From positions 1-13,687 of the forward strand of contig JBAXKK010000070.1 in assembly GCA_037137395.1 (NCBI GenBank): DNA of 13,687 bases, given 5' to 3'. Shown here piece by piece: positions 1,724-13,589 of this stretch (the first letter of the stretch is position 1; every line of letters starts with the position of its first letter). The notes beneath the pieces are model-generated. The model ran no database searches. It saw only the letters and a program-made list of their open reading frames with translations, and was not told where the DNA came from. Source of the stretch: Elusimicrobiota bacterium. Lineage in GTDB: Bacteria; Elusimicrobiota; Elusimicrobia; Elusimicrobiales; UBA9959. Made by a program: the position numbers and the translations under genes.

Positions 1724-1756
1724 AAAAAAAAGACCCCTACCTTCATGGTAGGAGTC
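1724..1756 (-). terminator. Intrinsic terminator forming the riboswitch expression platform
   Basis: Minus strand GACTCCTACC-ATGAA-GGTAGGGGTC followed by T8. The 5' arm is the 3' end of the aptamer. Confidence 0.9.
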
Positions 1757-1799
1757 ATCAGCCCCGTTGCGGGAGCAGTTCAGGCGAACTCCATCGCCT
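1748..1799 (-). ncRNA. Fluoride riboswitch (crcB motif)
   Basis: Minus strand AGGCGATGGAGTTCGCC-TGAACTGC-TCCCGCAACGGG-GCTGATGACTCCTAC matches the crcB consensus GGCGAUGGxGUUCGCC...AAxxGC...GCUGAUGACxCCUAC, including the GGAGU/ACUCC pseudoknot pairing. Confidence 0.96.
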
Positions 1800-1805
1800 A
1801 GCTTT

Positions 1806-1835
1806 ATTTTAGCAGGTTGTTTAAGGCGGGTTCAA
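1806..1835 (-). promoter_or_regulatory. Sigma70-like promoter for the riboswitch-antiporter transcript
   Basis: TTGAAC-N18-TAAAAT with an extended -10 TGn. Predicted start at about 1799 coincides with the aptamer 5' end. Confidence 0.7.
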
Positions 1836-3619: not shown

Positions 3620-4172
3620 TCAGCGGAAATCTTTGAGTTGTTTTTTTAGGAGAAGTCTTGCGCGATGTAGTTTCGCTTTTAACGCCGGTAGAGATATTTT
3701 TAGCCTGCCGGCCGCTTCCGAATTGGATAAGCCCTCTATGTCGCACAAGGTTATGGCTATTCTATAGTCCAGCGGAAGCGCCACCAAAGCGTTGCTTACC
3801 GCGCGGCTGAGCTCGTTTTTGATGGCGTTTTCGCTGGCTGAAGGCGTTGACGGATGACCTGGGCTTTTGTCTCCAGTCTCCGGGAATCTCTGAGGTGGCC
3901 GAGGTTTTGGCCTTGCGGAACCTTTGCCAGCAGTTATTGGCCGCGATGCGGTAAAGCCATGTGCCAAAAGCGGCATTTGCCTTGAAAGAGTTTATGTGTT
4001 TCAGCGCTGAGATAAATGTTTCCTGTGCCACGTCTGGGGCTTCTGACGGCATTCTGGCGCAGACGCTGGAAGCGATGCCGTAAAGCCGGTCCTTATACTT
4101 CAGGACCAAGGTTTCAAAGGCTTTATCATCACCATTGCGGGCGCGTGTTATAATTTCGCTTTCTTTTATCAT
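3620..4172 (-). pseudogene. ECF sigma-70 factor split by a +1 frameshift near 3870-3885
   Basis: ORF 3762..4172 carries region 2 (GDDKAFETLV..., DVAQETF..., FGTWLYRIAANNC). ORF 3620..3976 carries region 4 (LPLDYRIAITLCDIEGLSNSEAA...KAKLHRARLLL). Joined, they give about 181-183 aa. Confidence 0.88.
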
Positions 4173-4545: not shown

Positions 4546-5247
4546 TTACAATCCCATAAAGGTAACGGCTATTCCGCAGGTAAAGACCGCGAAGCCAGCG
4601 AGAGCATGCGAGTATCGCTCAATCTTCTGAACCGGTAGCAGTTCAATTCCGCGTAACGCCGCTAAAACCATAACCATCATCGTGGAAATAGTGCATAGGG
4701 AGAATACCGCTGTTACGGCGATTACCCCGCTCATGCTGCTCTTGGCCGCCGGATATATAAGCAACGGGATAAGTGGCTCACATGGGCCGAAAACAAAGAT
4801 CGTGAACAATATCCAAGGAGTGATGTTTGCTTTTCCTGCCTCATGGACGTGAGCGTGTTCTTCTGCGTGAGAATGATTGTGAACATGTTGGAATCCGCCG
4901 TGCTCATGCGAGTGCTCGTGTTCCCGGCCTGAATATGCCTTCTTAAGTCCCCAGATAAAATATAGCAGACCGAATATTACCAGCAGCCAGCCCGCAAGGC
5001 CGCCACGGAAGGCTTCTATTTTTTCAAGGCTGGTCACTTTCGCGCCGATATAAACACCGGCAAATCCCAGTATTACAGAACTCCCGACATGGCCCAGGCC
5101 GCAGACGAAAGTGATAACGCCGGTTTTCCAATAGGACCAGCCCCTGGCTTTGGCCATTGCTATAAATGGCACATAATGGTCAGGACCAAGCAATGTGTGA
5201 AAAAAACCGATAGAAGCTGCCGTAAGCGCCAGAACTTTAATATCCAT
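4546..5247 (-). CDS. His-rich Ni/Co transporter-like membrane protein (NiCoT/UreH/RcnA-related)
   Basis: FFHTLLGPDHY (HxxxxxDH-type) motif in TM1, GLGHV, central His-rich loop HEHSHEHGGFQHVHNHSHAEEHAHVH, and GPCE. Confidence 0.8.
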   Translation of the reverse strand: MDIKVLALTAASIGFFHTLLGPDHYVPFIAMAKARGWSYWKTGVITFVCGLGHVGSSVILGFAGVYIGAKVTSLEKIEAFRGGLAGWLLVIFGLLYFIWGLKKAYSGREHEHSHEHGGFQHVHNHSHAEEHAHVHEAGKANITPWILFTIFVFGPCEPLIPLLIYPAAKSSMSGVIAVTAVFSLCTISTMMVMVLAALRGIELLPVQKIERYSHALAGFAVFTCGIAVTFMGL

Positions 5248-5273
5248 TGACTCCTCCGAAGTGAATTATATTT

Positions 5274-6101
5274 CTATGTTAGCATTTTCTTTGTCGCCCA
5301 GGTCCCGGTGAGCAAGATGAGGAATACCGCCACTATCGTTGGGCCGGACGACAAATCCAGCCGCATGGATAGTTCAAGCCCGGCGAAACAGCCGGTCACG
5401 CCGAACAGCCAGCCGAATATTATGCGCCGGGATATGCCCGTCACCGCTATCATGGCCGCGACAGCGGGAATTATCAGGAAAGCAAAGACCAATAAAACAC
5501 CTGCCACTTTAACCGAAGACGTTACTATCATGCCGAAAGTGGCGTAAAACACGAAATCCCACCACCAGATCTTCATGCCCTTGCTGCGTGCCGCCTCGGG
5601 ATCTTCCGTAACCAGCAGCAACTTCTTCCGCGAGAACCAATGGATAAGCCCCATAACCGCACACAGCGCCGCTATGAATCCCAATTCTTTCGGCGAGACC
5701 GTAAGCAGTGAGCCGGTGAGCATCTCTTTTATCTCCTCAGTGCCTGTCGCAGAACGCTCCAGGACAATGAGCGACATTGCTATTGCTCCGGCATAGGTAA
5801 TGCCAATAAGGGCTTCTATCGGGACTTTCTGGCGCTTGCTTCGGAACACCACGAACAGCAAGGCCCCCAAGAGCGTAAAAGACAGGGACATTAGATAATT
5901 CTGCACCGGGAACTGTTCCCCCCATCCCAACAGAACGCCCACGCTTGAACCAAGCGCCGCTACCTGCGCAAGTGATAGGTCCACAAAGATAACGCCTCTT
6001 CGGACCACATGATACCCAAAGTATGTATATGTCCCGGTAAGCACAAGGCAGACCAGAAGCGTAATAATCGCAAAGTGATATTGAAATATCATCATAAACA
6101 T
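5274..6101 (-). CDS. Metal ABC transporter permease (ZnuB/ABC-3 family)
   Basis: RRGVIFVDLSLAQVAALG, GVLLVFAFLIIPA and DLSSGPTIV motifs in a polytopic membrane protein. Confidence 0.9.
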   Translation of the reverse strand: MFMMIFQYHFAIITLLVCLVLTGTYTYFGYHVVRRGVIFVDLSLAQVAALGSSVGVLLGWGEQFPVQNYLMSLSFTLLGALLFVVFRSKRQKVPIEALIGITYAGAIAMSLIVLERSATGTEEIKEMLTGSLLTVSPKELGFIAALCAVMGLIHWFSRKKLLLVTEDPEAARSKGMKIWWWDFVFYATFGMIVTSSVKVAGVLLVFAFLIIPAVAAMIAVTGISRRIIFGWLFGVTGCFAGLELSMRLDLSSGPTIVAVFLILLTGTWATKKMLT

Positions 6102-6979
6102 TACCTCCCTTCTATCTGAGCGACAATTTCTTCAAAATGCTTGAAATATGAATCAGGTTTGACATCGGAGCAAGAGGGCGAGAACTTGAATATCTTTATT
6201 CCGGTCTGACGCGCTAGGAATTTCGGCGAGCCGTCCGGAAAATAAGACTCCTGCAGTAGAATGGATATTCCATCCCGTTTGATTATCTCAACCAGCTCCG
6301 CGAGATGCTTCGCTGTGGGAGGAATGCCCGGCAAAGGCTCCACAGTCCCAGCGATGGTCAGGTTAAACGCCGTAGTGAAATATATCCAGGAAGAATGATA
6401 GGTGATGACTTTTTGCCCGGAAACTTTTGCCAGCCGGGATTTCCAGTCGGCAAGGTTCTTCCCGGCCTCTTCCTTGAAGCGTTCGTAATTCTTGTCGTAA
6501 TACTGACTGTTTGAAGGGTCCGCTTTCTTTAATGCGGTAACCACATTGCTCGCAATGATTAGTCCGTTCGCCGGGTTCAGCCAGTAATGCGGGTTGCCTT
6601 CTGGATGGATATCCCCCATAGAGGCATCCACTTTGCCGGTCGGCTTCTGAAGAGCCGCTATCCCGTTGGAGCAGTCAACCGTGAGCAACTTGCTGTTGCG
6701 GGAGCCATCTATTATGGCGTCCGACCATTGATCTAGTGCCAGGCCGACTTTCAGATAGAGCGCAGCCCGCGAAACCTTTATCATGTACGAAGGCAGGACC
6801 TCTACAGCATGCGGGTTGGAATTACTCTTCCCAATAGAGAATACCTCCACCTTATCGCCACCTATATAGGAGGCTATTGCGCCTATATCCGGCAAGGCTG
6901 CCGCGATTTTAACAGGACCGGCGGATACCGGGATAGCGCCTGTAAGAATAACTGCTACCGATAAAAGCAGATGTTTCAT
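6101..6979 (-). CDS. Metal ABC transporter substrate-binding protein (ZnuA/TroA cluster A-I)
   Basis: Signal peptide plus NPHAVE, GDIHPEGNPHYWL, TYHSSW and EPLPGIPPTAKHL motifs. Confidence 0.93.
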   Translation of the reverse strand: MKHLLLSVAVILTGAIPVSAGPVKIAAALPDIGAIASYIGGDKVEVFSIGKSNSNPHAVEVLPSYMIKVSRAALYLKVGLALDQWSDAIIDGSRNSKLLTVDCSNGIAALQKPTGKVDASMGDIHPEGNPHYWLNPANGLIIASNVVTALKKADPSNSQYYDKNYERFKEEAGKNLADWKSRLAKVSGQKVITYHSSWIYFTTAFNLTIAGTVEPLPGIPPTAKHLAELVEIIKRDGISILLQESYFPDGSPKFLARQTGIKIFKFSPSCSDVKPDSYFKHFEEIVAQIEGR

Positions 6980-7004
6980 AATGTTATTACCTCCAAAAAA
7001 TCAC

Positions 7005-8060
7005 TTAGAACTTATGCGCCTTATGCGGTCCCATGCTGAACAGCACCTGGAACATCGCGGTGTGAACAGCAGGGGAATTTTCCGGTTTGAAATGCTCATA
7101 ACTGAGCCTAAGCAGAGTCGTCTCTTCCAGCAGCGAGAATCCGACAAAACCTTTTAGCGCTCGGTTGGTCAGGCTTTTATTTTCAATCGGCTGATATTGA
7201 TCGTAAATAATACCCGCGTTCCATCTCTGCTTGAACTTCAGATCCGCAAAGACATAAACCCCCTGCCTTCTGATCCTGCTGGAATCGCCAGTGGTTGTGT
7301 CAACGACAACTTCGCTGTTATTATAGAGGTACTCACCCTGCAATGTCAGGTTGGTCAGGCTAGAGAAGGATATTTTAGTCTTAATATCCGCCCCGTAAAC
7401 TCCTGTTTTTGCTTTCCAGTGGACATTATTGACGCCTTGGGTGGCAGAAACACCTATATCCAGCGGCACCGTGTCATTCAGAAGCACTGAATTCCCCCAT
7501 CGGCTTATCCAGCCAGCCCTGGACTCTGGCTCGTCCGGGTGGAAGGATGCTCCTTTGAGAAAATCCACCGAGATATCGGACGCCCAGCTTCCGAAAGTCG
7601 GCAAGAGGTACGAAGCATGCGCCCCGACATCATTGAATCCATCGTCACCTGGAAGCATCGCAGACATGACTCTTGGGGCTTCAATGAACGGATAAGCATG
7701 CGGATGCACTGGGTTTAGCTTACCGAAACCTAGGCGGTATTTTCCCCCACGGAGCGCAAGTCCAGCTGGAAGTCCCTTGAGGACATCGATATATGCTTCC
7801 TCAGTCTGCAATCCTTCATCCCCTGCTGTGAACACGAAAAAACCCTTAGCATAGGGATTCAGATAGGAATCAAACACCAATTCCGTCTCGCCCAGGTCAA
7901 GCGTTGGCCTATGGGCATCCTGCACGGTTTTATCATCGTGGTATTTAAAAACAATCTGTCCAATAACCGAAATGTCCGGATTAGTCACTCCGGCGTATAC
8001 AACGCCGGGAATAATCAAACCACTTAAAAATACAAGGCAAATTACACTTACTCTAAACAT
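7005..8060 (-). CDS. Outer-membrane beta-barrel/porin associated with metal uptake
   Basis: Signal peptide, NPDISVIG, FGKLNPVHPH, alternating beta-strand pattern and C-terminal GPHKAHKF. First gene of the binding-protein/permease operon. Confidence 0.78.
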   Translation of the reverse strand: MFRVSVICLVFLSGLIIPGVVYAGVTNPDISVIGQIVFKYHDDKTVQDAHRPTLDLGETELVFDSYLNPYAKGFFVFTAGDEGLQTEEAYIDVLKGLPAGLALRGGKYRLGFGKLNPVHPHAYPFIEAPRVMSAMLPGDDGFNDVGAHASYLLPTFGSWASDISVDFLKGASFHPDEPESRAGWISRWGNSVLLNDTVPLDIGVSATQGVNNVHWKAKTGVYGADIKTKISFSSLTNLTLQGEYLYNNSEVVVDTTTGDSSRIRRQGVYVFADLKFKQRWNAGIIYDQYQPIENKSLTNRALKGFVGFSLLEETTLLRLSYEHFKPENSPAVHTAMFQVLFSMGPHKAHKF

Positions 8061-8154
8061 AATCGCTCCTTAAAAGAATTGATGTGTCACAAGAGTTTAT
8101 TCCGATACGACACGGCTAGGAATATCGTGTGACGGGAAGTCAATGTTTAGAGTA
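8049..8154 (-). promoter_or_regulatory. Long mRNA hairpin sequestering the porin start codon (translational attenuator)
   Basis: Perfect 12-bp inverted repeat between 8143-8154 (mRNA UACUCUAAACAU) and 8049-8060 (mRNA AUGUUUAGAGUA). Nested stems at 8128-8133/8086-8091 and 8119-8124/8098-8103. Confidence 0.75.
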
Positions 8155-8416
8155 TGGGAGGACCGCGTGAAAGGACGGTATTGTAGAATGTGCTTTTGAC
8201 AAGAACATCCGTAACAGGAACGACATTAAATAATATCGTAGGGTCAGCAGACTGAACTGTTACGCTATTTACCGGTATGACTGAAGAAGCAGCAATACAT
8301 AAGACGCAGCTATCTGTGCGGTGGGTCGAAAGATCATGTGAGGCAGCATGGATGCCTATACCTATTACGGCAAAAATAGCCCATATCGCCACTAGCTTTT
8401 TTATACCGCTTAGCAT
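8147..8416 (-). CDS. DUF2946-like His/CxxC leader peptide with C-terminal RGPP ribosome-arrest motif
   Basis: 89 aa: N-terminal hydrophobic segment, HAASHDLSTHRTDSCVLC, spacer, then SRGPPIL*. Confidence 0.82.
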   Translation of the reverse strand: MLSGIKKLVAIWAIFAVIGIGIHAASHDLSTHRTDSCVLCIAASSVIPVNSVTVQSADPTILFNVVPVTDVLVKSTFYNTVLSRGPPIL

Positions 8417-8422
8417 ATAAAG

Positions 8423-8452
8423 ATTCTACTCATTTTCCCCTGAGTATGTGAA
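8423..8452 (-). promoter_or_regulatory. Sigma70-like promoter giving a probably leaderless mRNA for the leader peptide, with an internal operator-like inverted repeat
   Basis: TTCACA-N18-TAGAAT with 6 nt between the -10 and the ATG and no SD. TACTCA-N8-TGAGTA (8427-8446) lies across the spacer. Confidence 0.55.
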
Positions 8453-8480: not shown

Positions 8481-8855
8481 TCAATGACATCCAGGGCCAC
8501 CGTGATGCCCACAGGCGTGCATGGGGTCGGCTTCCTTAAGTTTGCCGGACTTTACAGCCTTTGCGGCTTCTTCAACCGTAGATGCCGGACTGAGATAAAC
8601 TTTTATCCCTGCGGCTCTCAGACCGTTTATGGCGCCAGCTCCCATGCCACCGGCCACCACGGCATCGGGCTTGGCATTGCCCACAGCTTTGAGCGGGTTA
8701 CACATGCCGTGCTCGTGTTCAAGATTCCCGTTATCTATGATTTCGCATTTAAGCGTTTCGGTGTCGCAAACAGTGAAATACGGAGCGCTGCCGAAATGCC
8801 CGTAAACTTTCGCCTTCAACCCGTCTTTTGTTTCTGTAGGTATGCAGACTTTCAT
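8481..8855 (-). CDS. NifB/NifX-family (FeMo-cofactor-binding-like) protein
   Basis: MKVCIP...HFGSAPYF...GGMGAGA...AGIKVY motifs with His/Cys-rich segments HEHGMC and HACGHHGGPGCH. Confidence 0.9.
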   Translation of the reverse strand: MKVCIPTETKDGLKAKVYGHFGSAPYFTVCDTETLKCEIIDNGNLEHEHGMCNPLKAVGNAKPDAVVAGGMGAGAINGLRAAGIKVYLSPASTVEEAAKAVKSGKLKEADPMHACGHHGGPGCH

Positions 8856-8882: not shown

Positions 8883-10196
8883 TTAAAAATAATACCTGGC
8901 CCGCAGCTCATATCTGGCGTTGCCCGCTTTCTCGCCGAATTCCGTTTCGGGGGCACCGGCCAGGAACATGGCTTTAAGTCTAAGTTCAAAATTCGTGATG
9001 CGCGTCCACATTATTTCCGGCGAGAGTGAGAAACTTTTATCGTCTGCGTTTACTATCGTGGTCAGTGCCGGCGTAAAATAAAGGATATTGAACGGGTCCT
9101 GTTGTGTAGCACGCAGGTATACATAGTTGCGCATTGGGTTTACCACGCTGTAGCCGGAATTACCTATGTTTATTGCGTTTTGCATCTGCGCGGCGCTGCC
9201 CGTTCCTGCATAAGAGGCATAAGCGGTGTTTACGAAAGAAAAATAATCCATCATCGCCTCGTCCGAGAAGCCACCGCCGTTGTGATAATACTCGGCGATA
9301 TAGGTGGCGTCCTTTTCGGTCTGATAGCGTAAGCCGAGCAGCCAGCTTTTCGCGTCAAAGACTTTTGGGGCGGTTTTTCCGTTCTTGTCGGTTATGGTCT
9401 GGGGATTATCCGCTATTAAAGTCGCTTCACCGTGCACCTCGAAATTAGTGGAGATATTCCGCGAGAAATCGGCCCCGTAAGCCGCGGGTTTGCTTCCTTT
9501 AGCGCGATAGAGCAGATCGATGTCCGTATCGTAAAACAGGAAATACGCCTTAGCGGCCAGGTCCAGGTGGTTTAAACTGCCGAAGGTGTTGTTGAGATTA
9601 TCATAAACCGGCAACAATACCGGCGTGATGGACGCTGTTTTCAACCGCCCGTCAAAGCTTTTGGTATAATCGGCGGCCAGCACCGTGTAACCTTCAAGGG
9701 GCAGTTCGGGGTCGTCTGGGTTCTTCGGGCGGTCTACGAACGCCGCCGGGTTCCAGGCGTAGCCTTTGCCCCAGCGCATTACCTTTTTTCCGGTTATTAT
9801 ATCCGTTGACTGCGAGGGTTTTACGGATAGGTAGCCCTCATATATTTGCAGGTCGTTGTTCCAGCCCTGATAGGTATTGTTTAAATCGGCGTTGGCGCGA
9901 AGGTACAGCTTTGAGATCCCGCGCTGATAGCTCCCTTCAAGCTGGAGTTTGGAATTATATTCCGCTGTCGTCCAGGTTTTAGCGCGGTTATAAAATTTAA
10001 GCTTGTAAAACGCCGCGTTCCTGTCCTGGTCTATCAGCACCGGTCTGAATTCAGCGTAGCCGCCCAGGCTGTAGGGTTTTGTTTCAGTCTCGGAAACATC
10101 GAAAGAATAATCTTCCGCTGCACCCGGTGTTACAAGGCCGGGAGAGGCGGGAAGGCAGAGTAAAAAACCCAGGAAGAAATGCCGGCGGAGGCTCAT
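8883..10196 (-). CDS. Outer-membrane protein associated with the ABC/LolA-like module
   Basis: Signal-like N-terminus, GKKVMRWGKGYAWNP motif and C-terminal aromatic beta-signal ARYYF. ATGA overlap with the upstream gene. Confidence 0.72.
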   Translation of the reverse strand: MSLRRHFFLGFLLCLPASPGLVTPGAAEDYSFDVSETETKPYSLGGYAEFRPVLIDQDRNAAFYKLKFYNRAKTWTTAEYNSKLQLEGSYQRGISKLYLRANADLNNTYQGWNNDLQIYEGYLSVKPSQSTDIITGKKVMRWGKGYAWNPAAFVDRPKNPDDPELPLEGYTVLAADYTKSFDGRLKTASITPVLLPVYDNLNNTFGSLNHLDLAAKAYFLFYDTDIDLLYRAKGSKPAAYGADFSRNISTNFEVHGEATLIADNPQTITDKNGKTAPKVFDAKSWLLGLRYQTEKDATYIAEYYHNGGGFSDEAMMDYFSFVNTAYASYAGTGSAAQMQNAINIGNSGYSVVNPMRNYVYLRATQQDPFNILYFTPALTTIVNADDKSFSLSPEIMWTRITNFELRLKAMFLAGAPETEFGEKAGNARYELRARYYF

Positions 10197-10927
10197 CGCA
10201 GGGTGTCCACCTTCGGCATAAAGGTCAGCGTGAAGACCTCGTCTTTCAGTTCCCGCTTTTTTATCTTTGAGAAGATCATCACGGATTTATAGCCTTTATA
10301 AAGCGGGCTGTCGGTCTCTATCACGGAAGGCCGTACTATCCCGTCGCCGAAATCTTTAATTTCCTTATAATACAGTGTTTTAATGAGCATTCCTTTTTCC
10401 GTAAGACATTCCAGCTTTACGGGCAGTTTCTTCTTCTTGTCCACCCAGATGTTAAGCCTGTCATAGGCCACCGTTTTGCTCCTGGCCTTTACATGGAGAA
10501 GGTACTCTTCTCCCTTCTCTTCCATTTTCTCCACTGCGTATTCCGCGCCGAAGTCTATCTTGAGTATATCCGCGTTGTTGAATACGCCGCCGGTGGCGGA
10601 TTGCAGGCTGGTGATACGTATGGGTTTGCCCACGTTGGGGATGTAGAGCCACATATTATCGCCCAGCCTTAACATCCCTCGGCCTTTATCGCTGGCCGGG
10701 GAAAGGAATACTCCGGCGACCTTTTCATTGCCCTTGCGTACCATGTAAAGGACAAACTCCTTTTTACGGCCATCCGGTTCGATGTTAATGAGTTTTCGGT
10801 ACATCTCGTATGAGGGCGGCTCCAGGTTCCTGTCCACTTCCTGGAGCAGCGCGTTTCCGTCTTCTACGGCGTGCGCGACGGCGGCCATGAAAGCGAGCAG
10901 TGAAAAGATAAATAGTTTCTTCAGCAT
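10193..10927 (-). CDS. Outer-membrane lipoprotein-sorting protein (LolA-like fold)
   Basis: Signal peptide, FLSPASDKGRGMLRLGDNMWLYIP...PIRI, and context next to FtsX/LolD-like genes. Confidence 0.85.
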   Translation of the reverse strand: MLKKLFIFSLLAFMAAVAHAVEDGNALLQEVDRNLEPPSYEMYRKLINIEPDGRKKEFVLYMVRKGNEKVAGVFLSPASDKGRGMLRLGDNMWLYIPNVGKPIRITSLQSATGGVFNNADILKIDFGAEYAVEKMEEKGEEYLLHVKARSKTVAYDRLNIWVDKKKKLPVKLECLTEKGMLIKTLYYKEIKDFGDGIVRPSVIETDSPLYKGYKSVMIFSKIKKRELKDEVFTLTFMPKVDTLR

Positions 10928-10936
10928 CGGGCTCTC

Positions 10937-12175
10937 CTATATGCTCTTTAGCGCTTTGACAGGCTCTAGCCTGGACGCTTTCCAGGCGGGCTGGAGGCTG
11001 CCGAACACTGCCACGGCAAGCACAATAGCCGAAATCAACGAGAAGTCCACGGGGTTTACTGATGGTGTTAAGACAAAACCCTCGCGCATACCGAAAGAGA
11101 ACGTGATGTGCAGGAGCCTGACCCCGTATATCACCACGACGCTTATGATGTTGCCAGTGATAACCCCGGCCGCACCCAGGCACAACCCCTCCGCCATGAA
11201 CATGGCAAGGATGGTGTTCGGCTGTGTACCTATGGCGGCGATGGTCCCTATTTCCCTTGTCCGCTCGTAGACCGACATGATCATCACGTTCATAATGCCG
11301 ATGAGCACTATTGCCACGAGCATTATCTTAACTAGGAGTGTCATCATGTCTATCATCTTGGCAATGCTGGCGAACGGGGAAAGTTTTTCCCAGGTGTGTA
11401 TTTCAAAAACCGGCTTGCCGTCTTTGGTCTTTTCCTGCGCGAAGGCTTTTGCCAGGGTGTTGAAAGCCGTGTCGAGCTTGCCGAAGTCCTTTAAGTGCAC
11501 GGCTATCTCGCTGATTTCCGGCGGGTCCATGCGCAGCAGCTCCATGGCGTCGGCCAGCAGAATATAGCCGTCTCGCCCGCCGGGGCCGGGCGCGGTTTCT
11601 ATAATGCCGCCCACGGTGAACTGCTTGCCGTTCACTGAGCCGTCCTTGTTGGTGGCCACCAGCACCACGGTATCGCCGGTCTTGAGCTTCATGCCTTTCG
11701 CCAGAAGTTCCGGCACCAATACCTCGCCCGGCTTCAGATTACTGTTGCCCTCTAAAACCCTGGAGGGAAGCAGCGGCGCGGTTTTGAATTCCTTTTCCGG
11801 ATCTATGGCCGCAATGCGGATGTTGGTGGTCTCGGCAAAATTACTTATCATGCCGCCCAGCTTGATGCGGGTGGAATAAGACTCGACAAAGGGGCTGGCT
11901 TTAAGGATGGCTTCAGCCCGCGTCATTTGGTCAACAGTCAGGTTCATGTTCAGGGGCACATTCTCGACCGATACCAGATAGCCTTTCTTGTGTACCTGGA
12001 TATGCCCGAGCATGGAATCAGTGATCTGCGATATGATCAAGGTTTTATAGGAGTTTGTCGCCGCCATATATACCTGGACGAACACCACGCCCACGGCGAT
12101 AAGCGAGACTATCAGTAAAGACCGCCTTGCGTACCTGTGCGTATTGCGGACCGCCATTTTAAATATCTTAAGCAT
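10937..12175 (-). CDS. ABC transporter permease (MacB/LolE/FtsX type)
   Basis: N-terminal TM, large periplasmic domain, MSVYERTREIGTIAAIG and PAWKASRLEPVKALK. Confidence 0.93.
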   Translation of the reverse strand: MLKIFKMAVRNTHRYARRSLLIVSLIAVGVVFVQVYMAATNSYKTLIISQITDSMLGHIQVHKKGYLVSVENVPLNMNLTVDQMTRAEAILKASPFVESYSTRIKLGGMISNFAETTNIRIAAIDPEKEFKTAPLLPSRVLEGNSNLKPGEVLVPELLAKGMKLKTGDTVVLVATNKDGSVNGKQFTVGGIIETAPGPGGRDGYILLADAMELLRMDPPEISEIAVHLKDFGKLDTAFNTLAKAFAQEKTKDGKPVFEIHTWEKLSPFASIAKMIDMMTLLVKIMLVAIVLIGIMNVMIMSVYERTREIGTIAAIGTQPNTILAMFMAEGLCLGAAGVITGNIISVVVIYGVRLLHITFSFGMREGFVLTPSVNPVDFSLISAIVLAVAVFGSLQPAWKASRLEPVKALKSI

Positions 12176-12869
12176 TGTTGCCTCCGGTGCGGGACGTGCC
12201 AGTGAGTTCGCCGTCCTCCAGCGTGAAGATGCGTTCGGCCTCGCCGATGATCTTCTGGTCGTGCGTTGAGAAGATAAAGGTCGTGCCGGTCTCGGCGCGC
12301 ATCTTCTTCATCAGTTCAAGTATCAGGTAAGCCGTCTTATGGTCCAGGTTCGCGGTGGGTTCGTCGGCCAGCACTATCTTGGGGCGGGTTACTAGCGCCC
12401 TGGCTACGGCCACGCGCTGTTTCTGCCCGCCCGAGAGTTGGTCGGGATATTTATTGAGCTGGTCCGTCATGCCGACTTCTTCAAGCAGGGCCCTTATCCG
12501 CTTTTTGCGTTCATCTTCCGGCAGAGGGTTCACTATCATCAGCGGGTATTCGATGTTCTCATAGACGGTTAACACTGGGATAAGATTGAAGTCTTGGAAG
12601 ACAAAACCTATATGCTCACCCCGGAACCGCGCCCCGGCCTTGCGGTCCAGTTTGCCAACGTCCATGCCGCACACTTCCAGCAGGCCGCCGCTGGGTTTGT
12701 CCAGGCAGCCGATAAGGCTTAAAAGCGTTGTCTTACCGCTGCCTGACGGCCCGACGAAAGCGGCGAAGTCTCCAGCTTCCAGCTCAAAGTTTAATCCTTT
12801 GAGTGCCTCAACCTTGGTCTCGCCTGCGATATAATCCTTGTGCAGATTCTTTCCTGATATGATAACCAT
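12168..12869 (-). CDS. ABC transporter ATP-binding protein (LolD/MacB-like)
   Basis: Walker [15 protein letters not shown]-loop, LSGGQKQRV signature, [10 protein letters not shown] and STHD. Confidence 0.96.
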
Positions 12870-12902: not shown

Positions 12903-13319
12903 TCATTTTCCAGGTTTAATGCGTTTGGCCGATTTTTTGTTTCCGGCAAGGCGGGTTGTCTTTTTTGCGCTCTCGCAGCATCTCCGGCCGCCTTGGCCGT
13001 CATGCTTTCCGCAACCGCAACCGCCGGAGTGAAGTTTAACCGTGCCGCCAGTTATCCGTATTGATTTGCCGCATACCAGCGCATCGGCGATCTTCTGCCG
13101 GGCGGAGTTTATTATATTGCCGAAAGTCTGGCGGGAGACGCCCATTATCTTAGCGGCGTCCTCTTGATACATCCCCCGGGAGTCGGCAAGGCGAAGTGCC
13201 TCGAACTCGTCAAGTTGAAGACGTATCTCTCCGCCGTCCCGTGAGGCTTTGCCGTTCGGACCGAAACAGGAGCAGGAGGGCTCGGCATGCACTTTCCTGC
13301 ATTTTCTGGACTCGCACAT
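12903..13319 (-). CDS. DUF134-family putative DNA-binding regulator with Cys-rich tail
   Basis: RKCRKV...LQLDEFEALRLADSRGMYQEDAAKIMGVSRQTFGNIINSARQKIADALVCGKSIRITGG. Start moved to the ATG at 13319 because GGAGGA lies at 13324-13329. Confidence 0.9.
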   Translation of the reverse strand: MCESRKCRKVHAEPSCSCFGPNGKASRDGGEIRLQLDEFEALRLADSRGMYQEDAAKIMGVSRQTFGNIINSARQKIADALVCGKSIRITGGTVKLHSGGCGCGKHDGQGGRRCCESAKKTTRLAGNKKSAKRIKPGK

Positions 13320-13337
13320 ATATTCCTCCACTGAAAG

Positions 13338-13558: not shown

Positions 13559-13589
13559 AAAAAAAGTGCTTACAAAATAAGCACTTTTT
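13559..13589. terminator. 12-bp inverted repeat or bidirectional terminator adjacent to the right repeat
   Basis: AAAAAGTGCTTA-CAAAA-TAAGCACTTTTT (13561-13589) with T tracts on both strands, 9 bp before the repeat. Confidence 0.6.

Follow-up and report, generated by a model that had tools for sequence, protein, structure and literature searches.

The 13,687-nucleotide stretch of DNA analyzed here (the window; contig JBAXKK010000070.1 of an Elusimicrobiota bacterium of the order Elusimicrobiales) carries on its minus strand a short leader open reading frame (ORF) followed by genes encoding a porin, a ZnuA-type binding protein, and an ABC-3 permease. The features concerned are as follows.

8423–8452, minus strand: candidate sigma-70 promoter (TTCACA, 18 nt, TAGAAT)
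8147–8416, minus strand: leader ORF of 89 aa, a CruR/DUF2946-like candidate arrest peptide
8351–8395, minus strand: hydrophobic signal/anchor segment (leader residues 8–22)
8297–8350, minus strand: candidate metal site (H23, H27, H32, C37-x-x-C40)
8156–8167, minus strand: codons of the RGPP arrest motif, the predicted P-site codon being that of the first Pro (8161–8159)
8143–8154, minus strand: 5' arm of the putative repressor stem (end of the Ile codon, Leu codon, stop, and four further bases)
8086–8133, minus strand: inner hairpin joining both arms, from RNA folding
8066–8071, minus strand: porin Shine-Dalgarno (SD) sequence AAGGAG, within the loop and weakly paired here
8049–8060, minus strand: 3' arm of the stem (porin AUG and the next three codons)
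7005–8060, minus strand: porin gene (351 aa, 16-strand outer-membrane barrel; conserved H119, E87/E88, and a C-terminal His pair)
6101–6979, minus strand: ZnuA/TroA-family binding protein (PF01297, E 2e-48; three-His, zinc-type site)
5274–6101, minus strand: ABC-3 (ZnuB-type) permease (PF00950, E 4e-33)
4546–5247, minus strand: His-rich membrane protein (DsbD_2, E 1e-6; PRK10019, E 2e-4; weak nickel/cobalt transporter match)

The porin-ABC operon proposed in a sequence-only reading of this DNA was borne out, as the gene after the leader encodes a true 16-strand porin and is followed by those for the ZnuA-type protein and the permease. The AlphaFold model of the porin (pLDDT 94.6) has OprP as its closest fold (PDB 2o4v; Z 28.1, rmsd 3.8 over 308 residues). 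The two proteins have the 16-strand barrel in common, but their identity is 13% and the porin has conserved His and Glu residues, whereas OprP has an arginine ladder (according to the PDB entry title). Indeed, His and Glu residues are the most conserved positions among 106 porin sequences. A TonB-dependent receptor was ruled out by the 16 strands, the absence of a plug, and the length of 351 residues. Pfam and NCBIfam searches gave no family above cut-off, matches to LbtU were weak and confined to 15 of the 106 members, and no source names the porin in the ten clusters where a name was sought. The family is large (1,986 cluster representatives at E values up to 0.001), has its nearest members in Elusimicrobia genomes, and is likely a channel for zinc or divalent metals.

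Among solved structures the binding protein is best matched by the zinc-uptake binding protein 2ov1 (E 3e-22), with which its three His residues align. The protein has His at the position where the Mn-binding protein has Glu, a difference that we take to separate zinc-type from manganese-type sites in this family. The gene of the His-rich membrane protein is probably the fourth of the operon, although it is found only in some relatives (next to the permease gene in L131 and L132). Neither the ORF list nor a profile search gave an ATPase gene in the operon (4546–8060), and most of 20 regions from relatives (L123–L142) likewise carry the porin, ZnuA, and permease genes without one, the ATPase being present in L126 and L127. 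A second and complete znuABC, with its ATPase and with too little space for a leader, lies on contig C62 of the genome (G000), and the ATPase-less operon may borrow its ZnuC. Neighboring genes in relatives encode FeoB, ZIP, NifB/X-like, and CbiM proteins, which indicates several metals.

Elsewhere in the window, NifB/NifX-like (PF02579) and DUF134 genes (8481–8855 and 12903–13331) are of a kind that recurs beside the operon in L123, L125, L128, and L129, often with Fur, FeoB, ZIP, and ParA-ferredoxin genes, as a metal-handling island. Between them lies a four-gene block (8883–12869, minus strand) encoding an ABC ATPase, a MacB/FtsX permease, a LolA-like protein, and a family-less protein of 437 aa that is probably an outer-membrane barrel. 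At 13561–13589 a perfect 12-bp hairpin, which closes a 5-nt loop and is flanked by A/T tails, is probably a terminator. An ECF sigma factor is split over overlapping frames (3620–4172, minus strand; region 2 in 3762–4172 and region 4 in 3620–3976), the frameshift reflecting a disrupted gene or else a mistake in the assembly.

Translation of 8416–8147 (minus strand) gave the 89-residue protein that had been read from the sequence, with its hydrophobic segment, His/Cys motif, and terminal RGPPIL*. An N-terminal hydrophobic helix is followed by a His cluster and CxxC (H23-x3-H27-x4-H32-x4-C37-x2-C40), a 43-residue spacer, and the terminal motif. The AlphaFold model is of low confidence (pTM 0.35) and has a helix at residues 2–25 with neither a compact fold nor metal-site geometry. 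The −10 hexamer of the candidate promoter ends 6 nt upstream of the leader ATG and the leader has no SD sequence, two features which suggest that it is probably translated from a leaderless mRNA. The promoter search itself is weak alone (one site versus 1.9 expected by chance), and the same promoter and leader-start layout is seen in L001, L004, and L005. Among 30 lower-GC loci, 19 have a TAnnnT hexamer 4–10 nt upstream of a candidate leader ATG, a count inflated by permitting several candidate ATGs per locus, compared with 12% of all ATGs and none of 30 porin starts; an SD sequence was present in one of the 30. We found no literature on leaderless translation in the phylum Elusimicrobiota in a search that most subscription papers lay outside.

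Of 401 genomes from the phylum, 130 have matches to the porin. Among the best 30 loci of these 130 genomes, 29 have upstream DNA and 28 of the 29 have a leader ending in R-x-P-P or a close variant. In a metagenome set that overlaps the genome set (80 loci of 105, 76 of them testable) the leader precedes the porin at 75 of 76 loci, two being seen as tails only. A non-redundant set of 76 loci was obtained by dropping 26 of 102 complete loci at 85% identity. Left out were a weak partial match (L006), duplicates (L008–L011), and incomplete loci (L025, L056, L070, L115, and L116), and L067 and L114 were counted for leader presence only. The porins of L032 and L097 have no leader, that of L032 lying directly after a ribosomal-protein-S1-like gene.

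In an alignment of 29 leaders the only invariant residues are the initial Met, C37, C40, R84, and P86, with H27 conserved in at least 90%. CxxC is present in 72 of 76 leaders, 71 of which have two to five His among the preceding 22 residues; the exact His spacing varies, with relatives retaining an Hx(H) cluster ahead of CxxC. The four leaders lacking CxxC (L085, L107, L111, and L100; three with a single Cys and one with CxC) keep the His cluster and RAPP and may sense a different metal. The C-terminal motif is R-[AGS]-P-P in 74 of 76 (the others have RPPP and RSPT) and lies one to eight residues from the stop. The distance from the second Cys to the Arg is 43–48 (42–47 intervening residues) in 71 of the 72 CxxC leaders, the exception having two CxxC motifs, and the window leader, with 43 residues between CxxC and RGPP, falls within this range. 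Thus the spacer is free to vary in sequence and fixed in length, which is the strongest sign in these alignments of a putative nascent-chain sensor. A 12-residue hydropathy of at least 2.0 is found at the N terminus of 74 of 76 leaders, and dN/dS values of 0.21–0.33 against six close orthologues indicate purifying selection. A spurious ORF is ruled out by the conserved motifs, the conserved position, and dN/dS. No paralogous leader was found elsewhere in the genome, where one weak match has an internal stop.

The 12-nt complementarity claimed between the end of the leader and the porin start is present, in that 8143–8154 and 8049–8060 form an inverted repeat, 100% complementary over 12 nt and 82 nt apart, enclosing a hairpin that folds. 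Perfect 12-mers are rare: of the 18 inverted repeats listed for the window at a spacing of up to 200 nt, only two are of this kind. As stated earlier, one base (8155) separates the RGPP codons (8167–8156) from the stem. The description of the 5' arm as the last codons plus stop needs amending, since it holds the Leu codon and the stop but only the last two bases of the Ile codon, and extends four bases past the stop. The intergenic gap between leader and porin is 86 nt in the window and 30–263 nt in relatives. For a 106-nt segment whose ends were set at the stem, a choice that favors the fold, the folding energy is −26.9 kcal/mol (z −3.3), a value matched by 1 of 200 shuffles; wider ends gave z −2.2 and 7 of 200. 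The 12 stem pairs have pair probabilities of 0.74–1.0 in three context lengths, and the inner hairpin (8133–8086) is retained with changes in four close orthologues. No intrinsic terminator was found in the spacer and no Rfam match in leader or spacer. The sole Rfam element of the window is a fluoride riboswitch (RF01734, 57 bits, 1742–1807, minus strand) directly upstream of a Na+/H+ exchanger-family gene (561–1712), an ordinary fluoride-export arrangement.

If the footprint of a ribosome stalled with Pro86 in the P-site is taken to reach +15, 8 of 12 stem bases on the 5' side would be covered, and in silico the opening cost of the porin start, 15.9 kcal/mol without the ribosome, falls to 7.5, which agrees with the earlier proposal that a stalled ribosome melts the stem. 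The gain of 8.4 kcal/mol falls to 6.0 with a footprint to +11 and to only 2.4 with one to +9. Among 230 ordinary gene pairs from this genome (230 of 343, from crude gene calls), the largest gain is 6.2 kcal/mol and none reaches 8.4. Over the 76 loci the median gain is 2.1 kcal/mol versus 0.04 in ordinary gene pairs; it exceeds 4 kcal/mol at 31 loci and is below 0.5 at 25, which have no predicted switch. About a third of loci would thus need another output, perhaps Rho.

The 24-base stall zone pairs with its own porin start at −13.3 kcal/mol versus −11.6 with GC-matched swapped starts (0 of 10000 permutations, z −6.6; 76 non-redundant loci), and the zone adjacent downstream also prefers its own start (z −4.1). 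Four zones farther upstream in the leader gave null results for specific pairing to the porin start, as did three zones lying within the porin and the beginning of the gene that follows it. The first Pro codon of the motif is CCU, as in the anti-SD sequence CCUCC, at 49 of 76 loci, whereas 11.2 are expected from porin codon use. Pairing of this codon with the SD sequence is predicted at 16 of the 49 CCU loci versus 1 of the 27 others. In the window this codon is CCU yet unpaired in the model, and hence SD pairing explains only part of the codon bias.

Two designs are seen. In the subclade of the window the last codons and stop pair over the AUG, and in many other relatives the Pro-Pro codons pair with the SD sequence. 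At least five pairs are expected between the footprint and the initiation region at 41 of 76 loci, and among 38 close loci 18 show eight or more consecutive pairs over the AUG. In 19 hand-picked close loci both-sided changes were found at 5 of 14 pairs, altering amino acids of both proteins, and 81% of cells pair versus 29–48% when the alignment is slid. The sequence-only reading had called for stem conservation and covariation; the compensatory changes are there, whereas the AUG-covering stem is limited to a subclade (10 of 76 loci). Of four covariation measures two beat shuffles and two did not (49 and 255 of 500). The sixth Pro-Pro base and the base before GGAGG (26 loci) are C-G in 10 of 14, U-A in 3 of 5, and G-C in 0 of 6, counts confounded by GC content and kinship, and this base-by-base covariation was dropped as evidence. 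Note that because the loci are related the complementarity, codon, and covariation statistics are overstated. A chance stem is ruled out by the rarity of the inverted repeat, the position-specific complementarity, the footprint effect, and the compensatory changes.

Several known systems resemble this locus. CruR (Bp2923) is the prototype of DUF2946/PF11162 and, in the available text of its report (PMC9426467), has 45 residues between CxxC and RAPP, a distance kept within one or two residues across the family, such that addition of five abolishes regulation. The same text gives the signal sequence as dispensable, proposes that sensing is cytoplasmic, and has metal relieving the stall. Like CruR the leader is the first gene of an uptake operon and has an export signal, CxxC, about 45 residues, and a C-terminal RxPP, and in both a stall is expected to mean ON. 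The differences are that CruR has 145 residues versus 89 and precedes a TonB-dependent copper transporter rather than porin, ZnuA, and ZnuB genes; that the leader has RGPP and a His cluster; and that the output of CruR is shown to be Rho termination, whereas here a start-codon stem is predicted, in an Elusimicrobiota host. The DUF2946 likeness suggested earlier is good in the CxxC-to-RxPP spacing of 43 but poor in profile score, the leader scoring 14 bits (E 0.09) against a gathering cut-off of 23.7 in Pfam. With an E-value limit of 1 the DUF2946 profile picks up 9 of the 29 aligned leaders (best E 0.0014), and in language-model features a DUF2946-rich cluster ranked 18th (0.93). The leader has CxxC, a C-terminal RAPP-like motif, the spacing, and a hydrophobic N terminus (by hydropathy only), and it stands first in a metal-homeostasis operon in which the intergenic region is long, as is usual of the family. 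The copper-related downstream genes of the family are absent, the cargo being porin, ZnuA, and ABC-3 proteins. Owing to the Pfam score and this cargo the leader is classed as a CruR-like variant, not as CruR.

CutF of Rhodobacter capsulatus is likewise an exported Cys leader, on which the stalled ribosome opens a stem that shields the initiation site of the following gene, a trait seen at our locus in silico only. CutF has CxxxC and PPP and depends on EF-P, whereas the leader has CxxC and RGPP, and here the 5' arm overlaps the last codons of the leader itself. In the CutF case copper induces the stall and turns on a detoxifying multicopper oxidase, a cargo different from porin-ZnuA, and the accessible portions of the CutF papers (PMC9973294; bioRxiv 10.1101/2025.02.05.636593) thus give a polarity opposite to that of CruR. 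With SecM, ApdA, ApdP, and the RQH family the leader shares an RxPP-type motif with the third residue in the P-site and a stem over a downstream start; these peptides monitor Sec or YidC, head sec or yidC genes, and are described without a metal site in the available sections of PMC10987492 and PMC12992588. No secA, secDF, or yidC lies downstream of the leader at the loci examined.

Among the matches listed in the source data of PMC12992588, insofar as these were available, are His/CxxC RAPP leaders of 95–132 aa before 'zinc-regulated' outer-membrane genes of 400–500 aa. These are probably the same system, judging from length and context for membership in the porin family. The earlier suggestion that the mechanism extends beyond copper gains from the zinc-type importer cargo and loses in novelty, since such leaders had been listed and Ni/Co-linked CutF-like proteins had been proposed (PMC9973294, as available). 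The only tested metal-sensing arrest leaders in the literature found are CruR and CutF, both for copper and with opposite signs. That literature, which covered supplements in part and left most subscription papers outside, held no paper describing or testing a porin-ZnuA leader, nor a tested zinc arrest leader, and there was nothing on this mechanism in the accessible parts of PMC545781 and PMC4176598. How such leaders choose metal, direction, and compartment is treated as an open question in the available text of PMC12992588 and the CutF papers.

We favor, with moderate confidence, a metal-sensing ribosome-arrest attenuator that controls the porin-ZnuA-permease operon; from sequence the leader is very probably a regulatory arrest peptide coupled to a stem that hides the start codon. 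Transcription from the promoter just upstream would give a leaderless mRNA, on which the leader would be translated before the porin. The ribosome would stall at RGPP with Pro86 in the P-site, and its downstream edge would reach over some 8 bases of the 12-base 5' arm. The stem would then open, freeing the porin start, and the porin, ZnuA, and permease would be made as the default ON state. Plentiful metal would bind the His/CxxC segment, which, at 46–63 residues from the active site, would by then have just emerged from the ribosome or entered the Sec channel, and folding of this segment would pull the chain. The ribosome would finish and leave and the stem refold over the AUG, turning translation OFF, possibly followed by Rho termination. 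In the available text of PMC12992588 no arrest is more stable than that at RGPP and no 4-mer is more strongly avoided in proteomes, although an arrest motif alone is insufficient and upstream context matters; the P-site assignment to the third residue of RxPP-class motifs comes from toeprinting (PMC10987492, as available). The metal-OFF sign follows from the importer cargo and the likeness to CruR, from which the importer is probably made only while metal is scarce.

The same metal-relieved arrest could instead act mainly through Rho-dependent termination, as in CruR (PMC9426467, in the text available), the stem being secondary in some lineages. The genome encodes Rho, the last 34 leader codons of the window are C-rich (29 C versus 17 G), the median C/G ratio at leader ends is 1.58 over 76 loci versus 0.99 in porin genes, and the 25 of 76 loci without a predicted stem switch would be accommodated. 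However, the C excess comes partly from Pro-rich coding, and Rho control has no need of position-specific complementarity, compensatory changes, or a CCU bias. We consider it unlikely that Rho is the main output, although the two explanations are compatible and not exclusive. A somewhat smaller chance is given to the CutF polarity, in which copper, nickel, or cobalt would induce or prolong the stall and so switch the operon ON, for example to load metal-requiring enzymes. Copper-induced stalling of CutF opens an SD-shielding stem (PMC9973294; bioRxiv 2025.02.05.636593; both as available), CxxC is the copper motif in both tested leaders, the operon has a His-rich gene resembling Ni/Co transporters, and NikR is present. 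However, metal-ON is the wrong sign for importer cargo, the binding protein is zinc-type, and RGPP with the CruR spacing departs from the CxxxC, PPP, and EF-P dependence of CutF.

The remaining alternatives dispense with metal sensing or with arrest. It is improbable that the leader is a secretion or redox monitor like SecM or ApdA, in which Sec pulling or a CxxC disulfide would free the stall and adjust the synthesis of three proteins destined for export or the membrane to the capacity for export. A hydrophobic N terminus is present in 74 of 76 leaders, thioredoxin and DsbA genes are preceded by RAPP-like leaders with Cys pairs in the accessible part of PMC12992588, and disulfides belong to the CutF model as far as its available text goes; nevertheless, a His cluster stands beside CxxC in 71 of 72 leaders and the cargo is constantly metal uptake, with no sec genes. 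We give least credence, as very improbable, to a small exported metal-binding protein without regulated arrest, whose passing ribosomes open the stem by translational coupling. Any ribosome that translates the leader would pass over the 5' arm, and purifying selection acts on the leader, but what is conserved is CxxC, RxPP, and the distance between them, not the spacer, and the motif lies one to eight residues from the stop in a protein modeled without a compact fold (pTM 0.35).

Within the preferred metal-relieved attenuator, zinc seems slightly the likelier metal since the binding protein is zinc-type, with nickel, cobalt, manganese, or copper sharing the rest; the FeoB, ZIP, NifB/X-like, and CbiM neighbors leave room for these other metals. 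No Fur/Zur gene was found in G000 (98.9% complete), which has DtxR, NikR, and Rho genes, nor were Fur-family genes found in the close relatives G210, G339, G086, and G360. Fur-family genes are present in 278 of 401 genomes, including the close carriers G309, G122, and G362, which rules out that the leader replaces Zur everywhere. Several genomes have a Fur gene in the vicinity of the porin, although 7 of the 20 regions examined were picked on that ground. A broader proposal, which we regard as tentative and rather doubtful, is that the leader reads zinc through its His/CxxC site, that the stall codons CCUCC or the codons right after them hide the zinc-porin start in a widespread manner, and that the leader stands in for Zur where Fur/Zur was not found.

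The start-codon-stem leader is a variant of a switch type tested so far only for copper. If true, the proposal would give bacteria a post-transcriptional zinc switch; the CruR paper (PMC9426467), in its available text, states that no zinc riboswitch has been described in bacteria. The locus contributes RNA-level evidence for such a switch, its importer cargo predicts the sign of control, and with its leader of 89 residues and a 12-bp stem with natural compensatory variants it offers a compact low-GC test case.
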